Notes under the pieces: generated by a model
What the model was told of the DNA's origin: nothing
Seen by the model: only the letters and a program-made list of their open reading frames with translations
The model's database searches: none
Shown here: piece after piece, positions 1 through 25,675 of the stretch
Layout: every line of letters begins with the position of its first letter
Numbering within the stretch: position 1 is the first letter of the stretch
Virus record (IMG/VR): IMGVR_UViG_3300010376_000124
Coordinates: 1-25,675 of that record
Reading direction: 5' to 3' (one strand)
Origin: a virus
Taxonomy: Duplodnaviria > Caudoviricetes
Length of the DNA: 25,675 nt
Translations under genes and position numbers: made by a program

Positions 1-123
1 ATGGCGGCGTAGAGAGGCCCGGACTGGTCGGTGCACATCTGGTTGATGTCGCGGCGCAGGGCTCGCATGCCGACCACCGCGACGGTCGGCGCGGCCACTA
101 CGGCCCGGAGGGTGTGATGTTGC
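1..123 (+). repeat. Terminal direct repeat (left copy), assembly overlap of a circular contig
   Basis: 1-123 is identical to 25553-25675 and lies within coding sequence. Confidence 0.95.
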
Positions 124-7874: not shown

Positions 7875-8951
7875 TCACCAGGAGACGACGACGACATAGC
7901 CGTCGCCGCCCCGGCCGCCCGCCCCGGACATGCCGGTCCCGTTGGTCGCGCCGCCGCCGCCGCCGCCCGAACCGTTGACGCCGTTGCCGCCCGTACCGCC
8001 ATTACCGGTGCCGCTGTTGGAGGCGCAGCCGCCGCCGCCGCCGGCCGCGGCCACGGTCAGTCCGCCGGTCGGGGCGTTGCTGCCGTTGCCGCCGGGCGGC
8101 TGTCCGGCCGTCCCAACCCACCCGGTGACCGCACCGCCAATCTTGGAGTAGTTCCCGGTGCCGCCGGCAAAGGTGGCGTTGGCCGCGCTCACCCCGCCGC
8201 CACCGCCGCCGCCGCTGGCAAACGATCCGACCGCGCTGGCCGCGCCGGCCGCGCCGGCACCCCCGGCGCCGCCGTTGCCGCCCGGCCACAAAGTGAAAGT
8301 CGTGTTAGCCGTGCCGGCCGTGGCGCCGACCGAGGCGGCCCCGTTGACGGCTTGCACAAACGGCTGGTTCGTCGGGCCGAACAAACTCGGGCCGGAGGCG
8401 TTACCTCCGTTGTTGGCCGCGCCCGAGCTGGGCGCGCCACCGGCCCCGCCCGCTCCGACCACGAGCGCTACGGTCGCGGGCAGGTCGGAGGCGAGGAAGG
8501 TCTGAGCTGACAGCCCGCCTGCGCCGCCGCCCCCACCACCCGAAGCGGCGGTACCGAGAGCGGCGGCCACCCCGGACGAGCCGCCGCCGCCGGGCCCGCA
8601 GCAGGTCACCTGCACCATTGTCACCCCGGCCGGTTTGGTCCACGTGAACGAGCCGGGCACCCGGAACACCTGGACGTCGGCGGAGCCGGCCGGGCCGGGC
8701 GGGCCTTGTGCGCCCTGGTTGCCTTGTGGTCCCGGGTTGCCTTGCGGTCCGGCGACTCCGGGCGGGCCTTGTGCGCCCTGGTCGCCTTGTGGTCCCGGGT
8801 TGCCTTGCGGTCCGGCGACTCCGGGCGGGCCTTGTGCGCCCTGGTCGCCTTGTGGTCCGGGCGGGCCGGGCAGTCCGGTGAGGACGGTGGCGTCAACGAT
8901 TACCTGGGGCGGTCGCACCTCGAGTACGTCGATGACCGCGATGTCGGTCAT
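7875..8951 (-). CDS. Collagen-repeat, glycine-rich fibre protein
   Basis: Probable start ATG 8951 (MTDIAVIDV); Gly-X-Y run, then [23 protein letters not shown]...[16 protein letters not shown] glycine-rich domain typical of phage fibres; 358 aa. Confidence 0.8.
8695..8858 (-). repeat. 63-bp tandem repeat (about 2.6 copies) encoding collagen [21 protein letters not shown]
   Basis: Near-identical units begin at 8695, 8758 and 8821 on the + strand. Confidence 0.9.
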
Positions 8952-9331
8952 GGGTCGAGGACTGTGATGTCGGGGGTGACGATGACCATGCCGGCGAGGA
9001 CGGTCACCACCCGGCCGTCGCTGTAGGTGAGCTGCAGGTCCCATCCGCCCGAGGGGGCGGTCTGGCTGTCGGCGGCGTCGAGGTCTACGGCGATGGTGTT
9101 GGGCAGGGTGACGGTGCAGGTCATGTCGATGACCGGGGTGCCGCCGGGCCGGTCTCGGATCTGGGCGGCCACGGTGACGTCGGTGAGGTCGACGGGCTGG
9201 GTTTTGTCGGTGTCGGACCAGAGCACGAATTGCCAGCCGTAGCTGTCGCCGCGGTAGAGGCGCAGCGTGTAGTTGGCCGGCCCGACCGATGTGGAGCTCG
9301 ATGTGGTTGCTCGCGGCGCGGTCCGAACCAC
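8948..9331 (-). CDS. BppU-like / fibre-attachment beta-sandwich protein
   Basis: [11 protein letters not shown]...[14 protein letters not shown]...[27 protein letters not shown] pattern of phage BppU-N-like adaptors; ATGA-coupled to the collagen fibre gene. Confidence 0.65.
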
Positions 9332-9378
9332 GGAACCGGAACGCTACCGCCCCCGAGCTGGGGTATCTACGGAACCCG

Positions 9379-9636
9379 AATTCGTGCACAATTCGTGCAC
9401 ACTCCAAATGAATCGGGGCCTCTCAGAGTCCATCTGGGCACCCCGAAATCAACAAGCGTGTCGGGGTGTTTTCGCAGGTCAGCCCGTGTTTCCGCAGGTC
9501 GGGGCATCAGACCCGAAATTGGGGTGTCTCGTATCCCGCCTACAGGCTGACTCACCGTCACTCACCCTTCTGACCAGCACTTATACGCCGGAGGGTGTCC
9601 GTTTTGCCCCTCGCTAGTGCACAATTCGTGCACACT
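9379..9636. other. attP: arm-type integrase sites flanking a central core
   Basis: Exact 20-bp direct repeat GTGCACAATTCGTGCACACT at 9384-9403 and 9617-9636, each built from tandem 11-mers; CGCAGGTC twice and TGACCAGC motifs of the type common near actinobacterial att sites; abuts the int stop codon. Confidence 0.85.
9533..9557 (+). ncRNA. rnpB: Fragment resembling the 3' end of RNase P RNA (P4 and P1 3' strands) in the attP core; not a full gene
   Basis: ATCCCGCCTACAGGCTGACTCACCG resembles the actinobacterial rnpB 3' terminus (recalled mycobacterial form ACAGAATCCGGCTTACAGGCCAACTCGTCCG). Confidence 0.65.
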
Positions 9637-10776
9637 TCAATTGAACGCCGACGCGGCTCGGCGCGTCTGGATGGCGTTGGTGACGGCCTGGCGGGTGCGG
9701 TCGTCGGCCGCTTTGAACAGGTGCCCGTAGCGGGCGGTCACCTCGGCCGAGGAGTGACCGAGCCGGATGCCAAGTTCGCGTTCGGAGCAGCCCGCGTCGA
9801 TGAGCACCGACGCGTAGTAGTGGCGCAGATCGTGAAAGCGGGTACCCGCGGGCAAACCGGCCCGGGTGACGGCGGCAGCGAAGGCGGCGTCGATGGCCTG
9901 GCGCCGGGCCGGGGTGTGGTAGCGGGTGGCGAGCACCAGTTCGACCTTCTCCTCGCCTGACACCCGGTCGGTGACCGCGGGCCGGCGCGGGAAGCGGGCC
10001 AGGTGCTCGGCGATCGTGTCGCCCAGCGATTCGGGGATGGGCACAGCCCGGCTCCGGCCCCGTTTGGGCAGGGCCAGGTGGAGCGGGATACCGCCGAGCG
10101 ACACCAGCTGGCGTTCGACCATGAGCAGGCCGCTGTGAAGCTGGCGCAGCCCGACCCGGCCGGTGGCCAGTCCTGCGGTCTCAGAGACCCGCAGACCGGC
10201 GTCCGCGGCTAGGTATCCGGCCAGGCGGTACCAGGCCGGCAGGCAGGCGATGACGGCCTCCACCTGGTCACCCTCGAGCGGGCTGACCATCGGCTTGGGC
10301 GCCTTGGGGGGGGCCAGGCCGGCGGTCGGGTTGTCGGTCAAAAGCCGGGCCCGCATGGCCGCCGCGAACAGTCCGGTGACCCACGCCCACACCCGCTCGA
10401 CAGTGGCCGGTGCCAGCCGGTCGTTGAGCCGGTCGAGGAGGTGCTGCAGCTCGAGTTCGCTGATGCGGCCGATCCGGGTGTGTGCGCCGAGGGTCGGGAC
10501 GATCCAGTTGCGCAGGTCGCTGTCACGGGTGGCGGCGGTGGCCGGGCCGTGTTTGGCGGTGGCCTGGTAGCGGCCGACCAGATCGACGAGGGGGGTTCGT
10601 GGCCCGGCCGGGTCGATGTAGCTGCCGGCCCGCCGGTCGTTTTCGACCTTGGCCGCGAACTCGCGGGCGTCGCCGGCCCGGTCGAAGTTGCGGGCTTTCT
10701 GGCGGTTCTGCGGGTCGCGGTAGCGGACCTGCCAGCGCGGACCGCGAGGGCCGTCCTGGCGTTTTACAGTGGCCAT
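9637..10776 (-). CDS. int: Tyrosine integrase
   Basis: N-terminal arm-binding domain (RWQVRYRDP); catalytic GLRVSE, FHDLRH, LGH and terminal Tyr (TARYGH); AGGAGG RBS. Confidence 0.96.
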   Translation of the reverse strand: MATVKRQDGPRGPRWQVRYRDPQNRQKARNFDRAGDAREFAAKVENDRRAGSYIDPAGPRTPLVDLVGRYQATAKHGPATAATRDSDLRNWIVPTLGAHTRIGRISELELQHLLDRLNDRLAPATVERVWAWVTGLFAAAMRARLLTDNPTAGLAPPKAPKPMVSPLEGDQVEAVIACLPAWYRLAGYLAADAGLRVSETAGLATGRVGLRQLHSGLLMVERQLVSLGGIPLHLALPKRGRSRAVPIPESLGDTIAEHLARFPRRPAVTDRVSGEEKVELVLATRYHTPARRQAIDAAFAAAVTRAGLPAGTRFHDLRHYYASVLIDAGCSERELGIRLGHSSAEVTARYGHLFKAADDRTRQAVTNAIQTRRAASAFN

Positions 10777-10862: not shown

Positions 10863-11267
10863 TTAGGTGTCACCCCGGCGGGCGATCTGGCGGGCCAGGT
10901 ATTCGAGGGTCTTCTTCTGCTCGAGCATCTCGCGTACCGCCGCCTCGAGCGCCTCGAACGCGGCCCGAAGCTCTTGAAGCTCGGCGTAGGTCTGGCGGGT
11001 CAGGTCTTCGGGGCGGGCCACCTCGAGCGCCCGGGCCCGGCGCAGGTCATCGACCTCGGAGTCGCTCAAGTCGAGACCGACCCGCAGTTTTTCGAGGCTC
11101 TCGTCGGTCATGGGGCGATGGTTTGGGCCCTGCTGCTCGAGCTTGGAGGCGGCGCTCTCGGACAGTCCGGCCCGCCGGGCCATCTCCCTCTGGGTGAGCG
11201 GCCGACCACCCTGGCCGCGGGCAGCCCGGATTCTTCGTAGCACCTGCCCGACGCTCTCGGTGACCAT
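10863..11267 (-). CDS. XRE-family HTH immunity repressor
   Basis: VGQVLRRIRAA...LTQREMARRAGLSESAASKLEQ HTH_3 signature with a C-terminal coiled coil; divergent from xis/cro; start ATG 11267 or GTG 11288. Confidence 0.85.
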   Translation of the reverse strand: MVTESVGQVLRRIRAARGQGGRPLTQREMARRAGLSESAASKLEQQGPNHRPMTDESLEKLRVGLDLSDSEVDDLRRARALEVARPEDLTRQTYAELQELRAAFEALEAAVREMLEQKKTLEYLARQIARRGDT

Positions 11268-11288
11268 CCACAGATTCTTATTTCCCAC

Positions 11289-11449
11289 CAGTTACAGGTA
11301 CGTTCACCTGTGTTTATCCAGGTCAACTGACGTGACCACAGTGTGTGGTAACACACATTTTCCATAACATTGTCCCACTATTGACACAAACGCTGTGGGT
11401 GACGCTAAATAGAGGTCCTTAGCCTTTGAGCCACGAACGGGGGGTCCAC
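11289..11449. promoter_or_regulatory. Divergent lysis/lysogeny control region
   Basis: AT-richer intergenic region; palindromes ACAGGT-N6-ACCTGT (11294-11311), GGTCA-N7-TGACC (11321-11337), TGTGTG-N4-CACACA (11342-11357); TTGACA at 11381-11386. Confidence 0.7.
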
Positions 11450-11650
11450 GTGACGACCAACTCCGCGGCAGCCAAACGGCTGCTCAGCCCGACCGAGGCC
11501 GGCGAACGATACGGCTTCACCGCCGAACAGCTCCGCTACCTGGCCCGCACCCGCCAGATCCCGTTCATCCACGTCGGCCGGCTGATCAAGTTCCGCGAAG
11601 TGGACCTCGACGCCCACTTCGAAGCTCAGACCCGCCCGCCGCTACGCTGA
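11450..11650 (+). CDS. Excisionase/Cro-like HTH_17 DNA-binding protein
   Basis: RLLSPTEAGERYGF...LRYLARTRQIPFIHVGRLIKFREVDLD; GTG 11450 with a G-rich RBS. Confidence 0.85.
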   Translation: MTTNSAAAKRLLSPTEAGERYGFTAEQLRYLARTRQIPFIHVGRLIKFREVDLDAHFEAQTRPPLR

Positions 11651-22095: not shown

Positions 22096-22988
22096 GTGAG
22101 GTACCCGTCGTTCCAGGTGGCCTGAACCTGGGAGACTGCGCTGGTCGACTGGCCGCTCATCGACAGGATGGCCGATTGCGGCAGCGGCGGTATGTACGGC
22201 CACGACGAGACCGACCAGTCGACCGATGACAGCACCGACTGGGCCGGGTCAGAGTCGCGCCGCACGGTGTGGTTGAGCCCGTCGATGTCGACCCAGTGGC
22301 CGGCGTCGACCACGAAGCTTTGGGCAAAGTTGATCTGGCTGGAGGTGCCGTCGGGTTGGAGTTGCAGGCGGACATGCGGGGCGGTGACCGGCCCGTAGAT
22401 GCGCAGCAGCGGCCGGACGGCCACGTCGCCGGGCGAGGCGATTACCGCGGTGGACGGGGTTGACGACCCGGGCGGGTAAACCCGGTTGAAGGTGAGCGGG
22501 TAGGTTCGCCCGATCGGGGTGGACGCCCCCGACCGGGCGGCGACGGTGTGGGCGGCGGGGTCTCTGACGATGGGGTCGGCGGCCACCCATTGCAGCTGTA
22601 TGTCGCGCTCGAAGGGGCCGACGATCGGCCAGGTGTAGGCGGCGGCGCGCAGGGTGAGGATGCGTTCGGCCGTGCCGGGCCGGTCGAGGATGTAGTGCAG
22701 CACCGGGCGGGCGGAAGGGACCATGAACGGGGCGAAAGAGGCGGCCACCTGGTCGACCTGGGCGCCGGCCCCGGCCAGGGCGGTGATGTCGGCGGAGACC
22801 ACCCGGGAGGCCATCAGGGTGGTGCGGTCGTCTACGCCGTCCATGTCGGGCCGGTTGTTGACCACTTCACGTACCGCCGGGTAGCCCAGGTCGAGCTTGG
22901 AGCAGAAATAGCCGAGGGCCCGGTTTTCGAGGTACACGGTGAGCGCTCCGAGGGTGAGCCACGCTTGGCGGATGCACGGCTCGGTCAT
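22092..22988 (-). CDS. Distal tail protein (Dit)
   Basis: Start ATG 22988, directly after the tape measure gene; DLGYPAVRE, WVAADP, PGDVAVRPLLRIYGP motifs. Confidence 0.8.
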   Translation of the reverse strand: MTEPCIRQAWLTLGALTVYLENRALGYFCSKLDLGYPAVREVVNNRPDMDGVDDRTTLMASRVVSADITALAGAGAQVDQVAASFAPFMVPSARPVLHYILDRPGTAERILTLRAAAYTWPIVGPFERDIQLQWVAADPIVRDPAAHTVAARSGASTPIGRTYPLTFNRVYPPGSSTPSTAVIASPGDVAVRPLLRIYGPVTAPHVRLQLQPDGTSSQINFAQSFVVDAGHWVDIDGLNHTVRRDSDPAQSVLSSVDWSVSSWPYIPPLPQSAILSMSGQSTSAVSQVQATWNDGYLT

Positions 22989-24793
22989 GTCTGGCCGGTC
23001 CGTACCGCCCACGCTGTTTTGCGCATGAGCATTTCCAGGTCGGCGTCGTCGGTGAAGGTGGCGTTTTCGATGTGCACGGCCGGGCCGGCGGCGACGGTGG
23101 TGGCACCGCCGCCGGCCGCCGAGCCGCCCGCCGAGGACAGTGACGGGATTGCGGGCATGGCGGCCGCGATGGCCGGCTGCACCGCCCCCGACATCTGGGC
23201 GATGCCGTTGATGTAGCCCTGTACGGTGTCGCGGCCCATCTGGGCGAACACCGTCGAGGGCGACCCGATCCCCAACACCGATTTGGCCGCGTTGATGGGG
23301 GCGGTGACCACCGATTTGATCTTGTCGGCGACCGCCCCGGCCAGTGATCCGATCCCGTTGAGGAAGCCCTGCACGACGGCCTGGCCGGCGCCGTAGAGCA
23401 GGCCGCCGAGGTCGCCGATGGCCCGCAGGATGGCGCCGGGCAGGCCAGCGAAGAACGAGATAACCGAGTTCCATGCGCTCACCACCGCGCCGGCCGCGGA
23501 CACGATCGGCGACACCAGAATCGAGTACACCGACGCCCAGGTGCCGCGGATCCAGTTCCACACCGCGGCCAGCCCGTTGAGGATCTGATTCCAGTAGTTG
23601 ACGATCACGTAGACCGCGATGCCGATCGGGCCGGTCAGGATGGCGAGCAGCAGCGGCCAGTTGTGGGCGACCCAGTTGAACACGTCCAAGATGACGGACT
23701 TAACCCAGTTGAACGCGGCGACCATGGCGGCCGAGAAGGCCTGCCACATGGTTTGGAACACTCGGGTTTGGGTGGCCAGGTAGATGATCCCGGCGACCAG
23801 CGCGGCGACGGCCAGCACTACGAGCATGAGCGGGTTGGCGTCCATGGCCGCGTTCCAAAGCCATTGGGCGACGGTGACCAGCCGCTGCCAGGTGGCCAGC
23901 GCCATCAGCTCGATACGGGTGCCCAAGGCGGCGGTTTGCATGGCGGTGAGCGCGGTGGAGGCGATAGACATGACCGCTCCGAGCCCGGTGACCGCGGCGC
24001 CGGCCGCGGTGATGGCCGGCCCGAACCGCTGGCCGAACTCGGCGGTGCGGTCCTCGACGGAGGCGCCGAGCGCTTTCATTTTGCCGGTGAAGGTGTCGGC
24101 CGCGGCGGACGCCTGCCCGCCGACCACGCCGGCCAGGGCTTGCATGGCGGTCTGGCCGTTCTTGGTCTGGCCGGTGGACTTGTCGATGGTGATGCCGAAC
24201 TCTTTGAGAAGTTTGGTGTTGCCGTTGTAGACCCGGCCGAGCTGGGTGGCGGCGGTGCCGAGATCCTCGTGTTTGGCGGCGGCGACGTCGGTGGCGGTGG
24301 AGAGCAGGTCGAGCGCTTTTTGAGGGTCGTGGGTGGCCTGGGTCAAGATGCGCAGCGCGTCCTGGGTGGACACCGCGGTCTGGCCGAAGTGCTCGTTGTG
24401 TTTGATGGCCTCGTCCACCTTGGCCGAGTAGTCGTCGTAGGAGGCGCCGGTCGCCTCGACCGCCTGCTGGAGCTGCTGGTGGGCGGCCTGGTCTTTGGAG
24501 CCGAGCGCGGCGAGACCGACGCCGATGCCGGCCATCGCCCCGCCCACCCCGATCATGGCCAGCCCGACGTCTTTGCCGTGCTTGCCGATCTGGTCCAGGG
24601 CCTGGTCGATGCCGTCGAGGGCGGCGCCGAACGGTCCGAGCACCCCGGTCTGGTTGAGCGAGCCGAGCACTCCGGAAAACACGGTGTGCATCTTCGAGGC
24701 GGCCGACGAGGCGGCCGACCCGGCGTCGGTGGCCGACTTGGCGAACCCGGTGAGGTCGCCGAGGACCCGGACCAGGATCGACGGGCCGGCCAT
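22985..24793 (-). CDS. Tape measure protein
   Basis: 602 aa, Ala/Gly-rich helical protein with AQWLWNAAMDANP and aromatic-spaced repeats; follows the tail chaperones. Confidence 0.93.
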   Translation of the reverse strand: MAGPSILVRVLGDLTGFAKSATDAGSAASSAASKMHTVFSGVLGSLNQTGVLGPFGAALDGIDQALDQIGKHGKDVGLAMIGVGGAMAGIGVGLAALGSKDQAAHQQLQQAVEATGASYDDYSAKVDEAIKHNEHFGQTAVSTQDALRILTQATHDPQKALDLLSTATDVAAAKHEDLGTAATQLGRVYNGNTKLLKEFGITIDKSTGQTKNGQTAMQALAGVVGGQASAAADTFTGKMKALGASVEDRTAEFGQRFGPAITAAGAAVTGLGAVMSIASTALTAMQTAALGTRIELMALATWQRLVTVAQWLWNAAMDANPLMLVVLAVAALVAGIIYLATQTRVFQTMWQAFSAAMVAAFNWVKSVILDVFNWVAHNWPLLLAILTGPIGIAVYVIVNYWNQILNGLAAVWNWIRGTWASVYSILVSPIVSAAGAVVSAWNSVISFFAGLPGAILRAIGDLGGLLYGAGQAVVQGFLNGIGSLAGAVADKIKSVVTAPINAAKSVLGIGSPSTVFAQMGRDTVQGYINGIAQMSGAVQPAIAAAMPAIPSLSSAGGSAAGGGATTVAAGPAVHIENATFTDDADLEMLMRKTAWAVRTGQT

Positions 24794-25217: not shown

Positions 25218-25650
25218 GCACGCTCCCGGGGTCGGATCCGGTGTTGGTCCACACCAGATCGGAATTCAGGATCTTTTCGAGGGCCGTCGAGTAGCGGTCG
25301 GCCGCGACCGAGGCCAGGCCTTGGGCGGCGGGGAACATGTAGCGGCCGGAGGCCATGTACTGCCGTCCGGGCGGGTAGCCGCCGAAATCGACGGCGCCGG
25401 CGTAGGGGACGCCGGCTGTGCCCATGCGCACGTTGCCGCCGGTGCGGGTGCCCGAGGTGCGCACCGTGGCGACCAGGGCGCCGGTGTCGACGGGCAGCGA
25501 CGCCCGCACCCGGGAGGCGACCGGTTCGACCGCGTCTTTGCCGGCGGCCCGGATGGCGGCGTAGAGAGGCCCGGACTGGTCGGTGCACATCTGGTTGATG
25601 TCGCGGCGCAGGGCTCGCATGCCGACCACCGCGACGGTCGGCGCGGCCAC
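25210..25650 (-). CDS. HK97 gp10-like tail completion protein
   Basis: VVGMRALRRDI...PVDTGAL...VPYAGAVDFG...YMFPA motifs. Confidence 0.8.
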   Translation of the reverse strand: MAAPTVAVVGMRALRRDINQMCTDQSGPLYAAIRAAGKDAVEPVASRVRASLPVDTGALVATVRTSGTRTGGNVRMGTAGVPYAGAVDFGGYPPGRQYMASGRYMFPAAQGLASVAADRYSTALEKILNSDLVWTNTGSDPGSVHD

Positions 25651-25675
25651 TACGGCCCGGAGGGTGTGATGTTGC
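25553..25675 (+). repeat. Terminal direct repeat (right copy)
   Basis: Identical to 1-123. Confidence 0.95.

Follow-up and report, generated by a model that had tools for sequence, protein, structure and literature searches.

The window, meaning the whole 25,675-nucleotide stretch of DNA analysed here, carries a 123-bp terminal direct repeat (1..123, +, recurring at 25553-25675), which implies a circular, complete genome of 25,552 bp. Structural and lytic genes are encoded (terminase, portal, protease, capsid, tail, tape-measure and amidase), together with a lysogeny module composed of a tyrosine integrase, an HTH repressor-like gene and an excisionase-like gene. On sequence grounds, the whole stretch is a complete circular temperate phage. 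Because the genome is circular and complete, and because phage genes flank the attachment site on both sides, that site is read as an intact attP and not as a prophage end. Its features and the adjoining lysogeny genes are as follows.

9379..9412 (+): left arm-type repeats, two tandem 11-mers plus copy 1 of a 29-bp repeat (repeat analysis; integrase arm binding predicted)
9466..9500 (+): two 15-nt direct repeats ending GCAGGTC, 20 bp apart (repeat family D7)
9531..9543 (no strand): core dyad GTA-[7 nt]-TAC (sequence, mirror test and left edges of displaced copies)
9533..9559 (+): identity block, 21-27 bp shared with host rnpB (the RNase P RNA gene) at its 3' end (exact search, Rfam, pairing counts)
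9534-9541 and 9546-9559 (+): P4 3' strand and P1 3' strand within the identity block, separated by joining bases (pairing)
9570..9578 (+): TGACCAGC motif, in opposite orientation to the GCAGGTC motifs on the left (sequence; putative function)
9617..9645 (+): right arm-type repeat, overlapping the integrase stop codon (repeat analysis)
9637..10776 (-): tyrosine integrase, 379 aa, converging on the core (PF00589, E=3.7e-18; phrog_1, E=1.4e-43)
10863..11288 (-): HTH repressor-like gene (PF13560, E=2.2e-5, below the curated cut-off; phrog_5823)
11426..11650 (+): excisionase-like HTH gene (PF12728, E=7.9e-7; phrog_66)

The attP spans 267 bp (9379-9645), with arm repeats on either side of the core. 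The two repeat copies, at 9384-9412 and 9617-9645, are identical over 20 bp and 93% identical over 29 bp, and their 11-mer occurs in the window only at 9379, 9390 and 9623. A preliminary description had placed the core GTA-TCCCGCC-TAC between two 20-bp arm repeats and had seen no tRNA or tmRNA signature there. Both points hold: the core lies at 9531-9543, followed by AGGCTGACTCACCGTC, and no tRNA or tmRNA was found in the whole window. The GCAGGTC-ending repeats are likely sites for an accessory protein, either Xis or a host factor. Similar motifs flank the core in four related phages (L001, L002, L061 and L062), each of which has left and right arm repeats of its own at matching offsets of ∼-150 and +80 to +90. 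The TGACCAGC motif is also found 3' of the core at many chromosomal attL sites. In the integrase, R196, K238, H315, R318, H341 and Y350 fall in conserved alignment columns, and we take these residues to be the catalytic set.

To identify the origin of the core, its 21 nt at 9533-9553 were searched exactly against 185,579 species genomes, one per species. This returned 19 matches, where ∼0.27 would be expected by chance (596 Gb, both strands, uniform composition assumed). All 19 lie at the 3' end of an RNaseP_bact_a gene; the host loci score 178-259 bits as RF00010, against a gathering score of 100. The record titles name Acidimicrobiia groups in 16 cases, and the other three say only Actinomycetota or Actinomycetes. 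The resemblance to an rnpB 3' end noted in the preliminary description is thus an exact identity. The leftward break that it reported, where ACAGA should stand, is equally constant: identity ends at 9533 in 19/19 hosts, each with ACAGA directly before the core. To the right it extends by 0-6 bases, for a maximum of 27 bp in total (L008).

Pairing counts are in agreement with this placement. The predicted host P4 5' strand, GAGGAAGGTCGGGA (AGG(T)CGGGA), is present in 18 of the 19 hosts, the remaining one being N-masked, and by eye it pairs with TCCCGCCT at 8 positions. The start foreseen for the host gene was likewise recovered: phage positions 9546-9559 pair with the host P1 5' strand at 14/14 positions in 14 of the 18 parsable hosts and at 11-13 of 14 in the other four. 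The helices are named P4 and P1 as in bacterial RNase P RNA. The host P4 5' strand departs from the Rfam consensus, which accounts for the narrow host range of the core match. When the entire window was scanned against Rfam (cmscan), the fragment was missed even at E<=10, only 6 weak unrelated matches appearing, and no full-length RF00010 gene scored above the gathering score; the window holds a 3' fragment and no phage-encoded RNase P RNA. An nhmmer profile built from 15 host rnpB genes had a sole match in the window, at 9532-9557 (E=2.7e-4).

Among the viral contigs (viral_contigs), the exact 21-mer had no match, and a degenerate form of the core had five: L001, L002, L057, L056 and L059. 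In L001 and L002, whose integrases are 61% identical to that of the window, variant cores occupy the same place, and their changes fall in the P1 strand, where hosts vary too (L058 repeats L001; L023 and L060 repeat L002). L057 carries the core with a converging integrase at 31% identity, and in L056 and L059, which also carry it, distant integrases lead away from the core. L061 (57% integrase identity), a sister of L001 with the same arm layout, has a variant core with CAGAA before a variant 7-mer. The prediction that this core would fit an rnpB variant failed: none of its 7 matches in a 401-genome sample is rnpB, nor is its single one-mismatch match in a 381-genome sample. This region (L061:3119-4019, downstream of int) may reflect an unsampled host variant or a target switch. 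L062 (52%) has the same attP arms around an unrelated core with no rnpB likeness (L062:3116-4016, downstream of int), which suggests retargeting within the phage clade.

The nearest integrase is that of L024 (68% over 302 aa), on a contig that lacks the 5' side; there a gene converges on the int 3' end, and the int/attP cassette seems inverted relative to the window layout. The converging gene (L024:850-1378) is repressor-like by eye. The L025 contig ends inside int, and neither L024 nor L025 is informative about the core. The canonical core motif is absent from all 55 viral integrase loci L061-L115, most of which are distant (22-47%, short matches). A loose P4 3'-strand pattern occurs ∼1.9 kb upstream of a partial integrase match at L111:112 and L113:117, and these motifs may be due to chance.

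Chromosomal relatives of the integrase are 29-39% identical to it and often flank an intact rnpB. Two overlapping samples were examined, G378 being in both. For the class of G002, 401 genomes were sampled and 59 gave an integrase match; the three best matches and L040 converge on an intact rnpB (4 of the 30 loci listed among the matches), 15 of the 30, all weaker matches, lie beside tRNAs, and 11 lie beside neither. In the order sample, alignment A1 was run against 401 genomes of the order of G378, of which 59 matched. Of the best 30 loci, 11 have rnpB within 1.5 kb (seven identified by Rfam among 20 loci scanned, one earlier as L027, three by the host-built profile only), another 3 show the 3' fragment by itself, and a tRNA is absent from all 30; 15 show no rnpB link in the available DNA, L136 being counted as linked with rnpB 1.7 kb away. 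A search of 25 genomes at the family level added two more loci, L185 and L186. No claim depends on the unpublished genomes G259, G217, G428, G603 or G508, whose loci L050, L151 and L155 count as misses in the scanned totals. No chromosomal integrase above 39% identity to that of the phage was found in the genome searches, so no lysogen of the phage or its clade was recovered. The proposed search for attL/attR junctions came back empty for the phage itself: in the contigs of one phage-holding run (∼68% of it), which may be the source of the window, a single contig contains the whole stretch and shows no break at the core.

Duplicated rnpB 3' fragments beside integrase homologues, which had been anticipated, were found at these chromosomal relatives. 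Displaced copies occur in 11 genomes, 3-128 kb away or on another contig, with up to three in tandem. In the first set, three of five genomes have a second exact copy of the tail (G378 at +10.3 kb, G069 at +10.1 kb, G089 on another contig). In the second set, ten genomes chosen for their integrase matches, eight have 2-4 copies and a reversed-pattern control gave 0; the other two, G594 and G727, have single copies only. G593 has the gene and three tandem copies, G574 the gene and two, and G749 a displaced copy at +3.1 kb. In G593 (C31:96527-224640), rnpB is followed by three displaced tails bounding segments of ∼10, 103 and 14.5 kb, with a second integrase match at 96627-97529.

The contents of these elements vary. 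At rnpB in G378 lies a 10.3-kb element (L116, C177:20217-30487) that carries genes for capsid, terminase and portal; the ORFs scanned yielded no tail gene, and the element is satellite-like. In G069, the element carries genes for a methylase, Vsr, an HSP90-like ATPase and an HNH protein. The contents of these two elements indicate that the rnpB site is used by satellite-like and defence elements too. In G001 (L014), where a distant integrase leads away from rnpB, a search of ∼80 kb yielded no displaced copy above 12 nt. The far end was not found in G057, where the variant lies outside the search pattern and the contig ends. The second copy in G710 is not identical to the rnpB of that genome and was excluded from the 14 displaced copies; in G722, one copy of three was counted as displaced, because the genome has two full rnpB genes. 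These two full genes (G722:C12:171060 and C13:366892) share one genome bin and have different downstream flanks, reflecting either a strain mixture or a real duplication.

A tree of 69 integrases (quick search, SH-aLRT support, no bootstrap) places that of the window in a mostly-phage clade (7 rows, support 97; 8 rows, support 99). The enclosing 47-row group (93) has no tRNA-adjacent member; inside it, all the near chromosomal rnpB-adjacent integrases fall in a 29-row clade (99) that stands apart from the phage clade. The L014, L056 and L059 integrases sit far outside this group on long branches, a placement that suggests a second origin of rnpB-site use. They lie at L014:4812-5891, L056:3391-4635 and L059:3241-4686, all leading away from the rnpB tail.

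Three things are directly observed: the sequence identity with host rnpB, the make-up of the attP, and the presence of related integrases at rnpB together with displaced copies of its 3' end. The combined evidence makes it very probable that the locus is the attP of a circular temperate phage whose core, an exact copy of an Acidimicrobiia rnpB 3' end, marks the likely attB of its tyrosine integrase. Integration by this phage is what the anatomy, the exact identity and the relatives point to; the 61%-identical phages L001 and L002, with variant cores at the same place, argue for rnpB as the target, and the L061 core unmatched to rnpB and the L062 core unlike it argue against. Also against it count the lack of a lysogen in the genome searches, the position of the phage clade apart from the chromosomal rnpB clade, the 15 order-sample loci with no rnpB link, and a whole-site dyad score that prefers another centre. 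Under this model, Int would occupy the arm repeats, and strand exchange would take place over the 7-bp TCCCGCC, which forms the 3' strand of helix P4. The host side would contribute rnpB through ACAGAA, and the phage would bring the P4 3' strand and the P1 3' strand. As a result, attL would hold a complete ribozyme gene with int pointing towards it, and the original host tail would end up at attR; Xis-aided excision would reverse the integration.

Two other accounts of the core were considered. The phage might integrate elsewhere or persist unintegrated, with the core as an inherited, disused site. The sister phages L061 and L062 lend this some weight, as their other cores within the same arm layout show that the clade changes target, and so does the lack of a lysogen in the genome searches or in the contigs of the one phage-holding run. 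We nonetheless consider it improbable, given an intact integrase with conserved residues, arms that are perfect over 20 bp, and a core 100% identical to living hosts over 21-27 bp that is the sole host-matching block between the arms. Still harder to credit is a match that has nothing to do with integration, be it a piece of host DNA picked up by the phage, a coincidental resemblance, or a small RNA directed at RNase P as a decoy or antisense. All that favours such accounts is the shortness of the stretch (27 bp); 19 matches all in one gene far exceed the chance expectation, and in three related phages the block sits between arm repeats beside int. No promoter-like or terminator-like site was found at 9300-9700, the predicted fold is unremarkable (z=-1.44), and chromosomal attL/attR pairs largely refute such an origin.

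The position of the crossover is a separate matter. Eight of the 14 displaced copies (11 genomes) share their left edge with the 7-mer, and the rest reach 1-9 bases further left. Because the original patterns included the 7-mer, the search was repeated with it omitted; in 10 genomes this added one site only, a chance-like 16-17-nt match. When only the element-derived bases of 12 attP/attR sites were scored, mirror symmetry was best about the 7-mer (35/78, p=0.001; p ∼0.03 after correction for the 30 centres tried), a modest support because the sites are related. These edges and the mirror test make TCCCGCC (9534-9540) the probable 7-bp strand-exchange overlap. A cut in the same gene centred further right, in 6-8 bp around CTACAG (9540-9545) between P4 and P1, with TCCCGCC as the left binding site only, appears rather unlikely. 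The whole-site dyad scores do favour this centre, a GCC-TACA-GGC palindrome right of the 7-mer (its best scores are 50/72 and 41/72; the 7-mer reaches 40/72). Moreover, shared identity normally reaches past the overlap, as in lambda, in which case the left edges would merely bound the cut. The palindrome, however, is host rnpB sequence in every site and so is uninformative on element adaptation; element-derived mirroring there is 21/78 against 35/78 about the 7-mer, and the left edges cluster where the 7-mer starts. The earlier proposal of a cut within P4 with replacement of the 3' end is supported, all of its sequence predictions having been borne out; the cut positions themselves we infer.

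A comparison with known systems places the phage close to the Islander class of tRNA/tmRNA integration (PMC4383910). According to the accessible part of that source, the class is characterised by a tyrosine integrase and an attP of ∼250 bp with a target fragment, both shared here, and by regeneration of the target, which is predicted here; the displaced 3' fragment at the far end and the tandem arrays are shared by the chromosomal relatives. The phage has an integrase beside the att site, an arm-flanked attP (binding predicted) and a putatively gene-restoring core fragment, but its probable target is the RNase P ribozyme gene and not a tRNA or tmRNA gene. The integrated form, an intact gene and a displaced fragment with the element between them, was seen in related chromosomal elements and was not found for the phage itself. 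The probable overlap here is a helix strand, as opposed to an anticodon loop, T loop or T/acceptor junction. The available text of PMC4383910 names tRNA and tmRNA targets and contains neither 'rnpB' nor 'RNase'.

The nearest published parallel found, as far as the accessible part of PMC12540744 describes it, is Enterococcus phage phiEf11, which integrates in ffs, the SRP RNA gene. There too, a 27-nt core near the integrase end corresponds to the 3' part of a housekeeping non-coding RNA gene that is neither tRNA nor tmRNA. The gene and the phylum differ, and in phiEf11 the ffs 3' end is altered and the site confined to E. faecalis lysogens (same source). For the present phage, by contrast, restoration of the tail is predicted, and many Acidimicrobiia genomes show use of the rnpB site. 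Cultured actinophages (Corynebacterium phi16, Gordonia Finkle and Schmidt, Rhodococcus Sleepyhead) share the integrase family and the int/repressor layout, with at most ∼29% integrase identity among the best 15 of 109 matches and less than 60% in all 109. The preliminary description did not know rnpB as a commonly described phage attB. In keeping with this, no report of it as an attachment site was found in the mostly open-access literature searched; it is absent from the accessible parts of PMC12540744, PMC4383910, PMC2818188, PMC5771137, PMC9569102, PMC2705793, PMC2864759, PMC2516327 and bioRxiv 10.1101/2025.09.16.676606.

The proposed mechanism is familiar gene-restoring integration, and the novelty is the target. 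On balance, we lean towards ranking rnpB with the tRNA and tmRNA genes, as a third general kind of target for integration. It would form a hotspot in Acidimicrobiia for phages, satellites and defence islands in tandem, with at least two distant integrase lineages having converged on the same 7-bp P4 strand and with clade-specific P4/P1 sequences limiting the hosts that can be lysogenised. Island finders built on tRNA and tmRNA genes alone would overlook all elements at such a site. rnpB is essential and usually single-copy, which makes it an ideal landing pad present in almost every host. The P4 helix of RNase P RNA is catalytic; if the cut lies within it, a lysogen's phage would encode part of the active-site helix of the host ribozyme. 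The core also yields a host call, Acidimicrobiia, for an uncultured phage, and the integrase and attP form a candidate pair for site-specific vectors in that class.

Elsewhere in the window, an IPT/TIG-domain gene (1345-1758, -) immediately follows the capsid gene. An LtfC-like tail-fibre assembly gene and a glycine-rich fibre-like frame (7875-9331, -) sit between attP and the HNH/terminase genes, apart from the other tail genes. The tape-measure protein is short (602 aa; 22985-24793, -), in a very small tailed phage genome of 25.6 kb.
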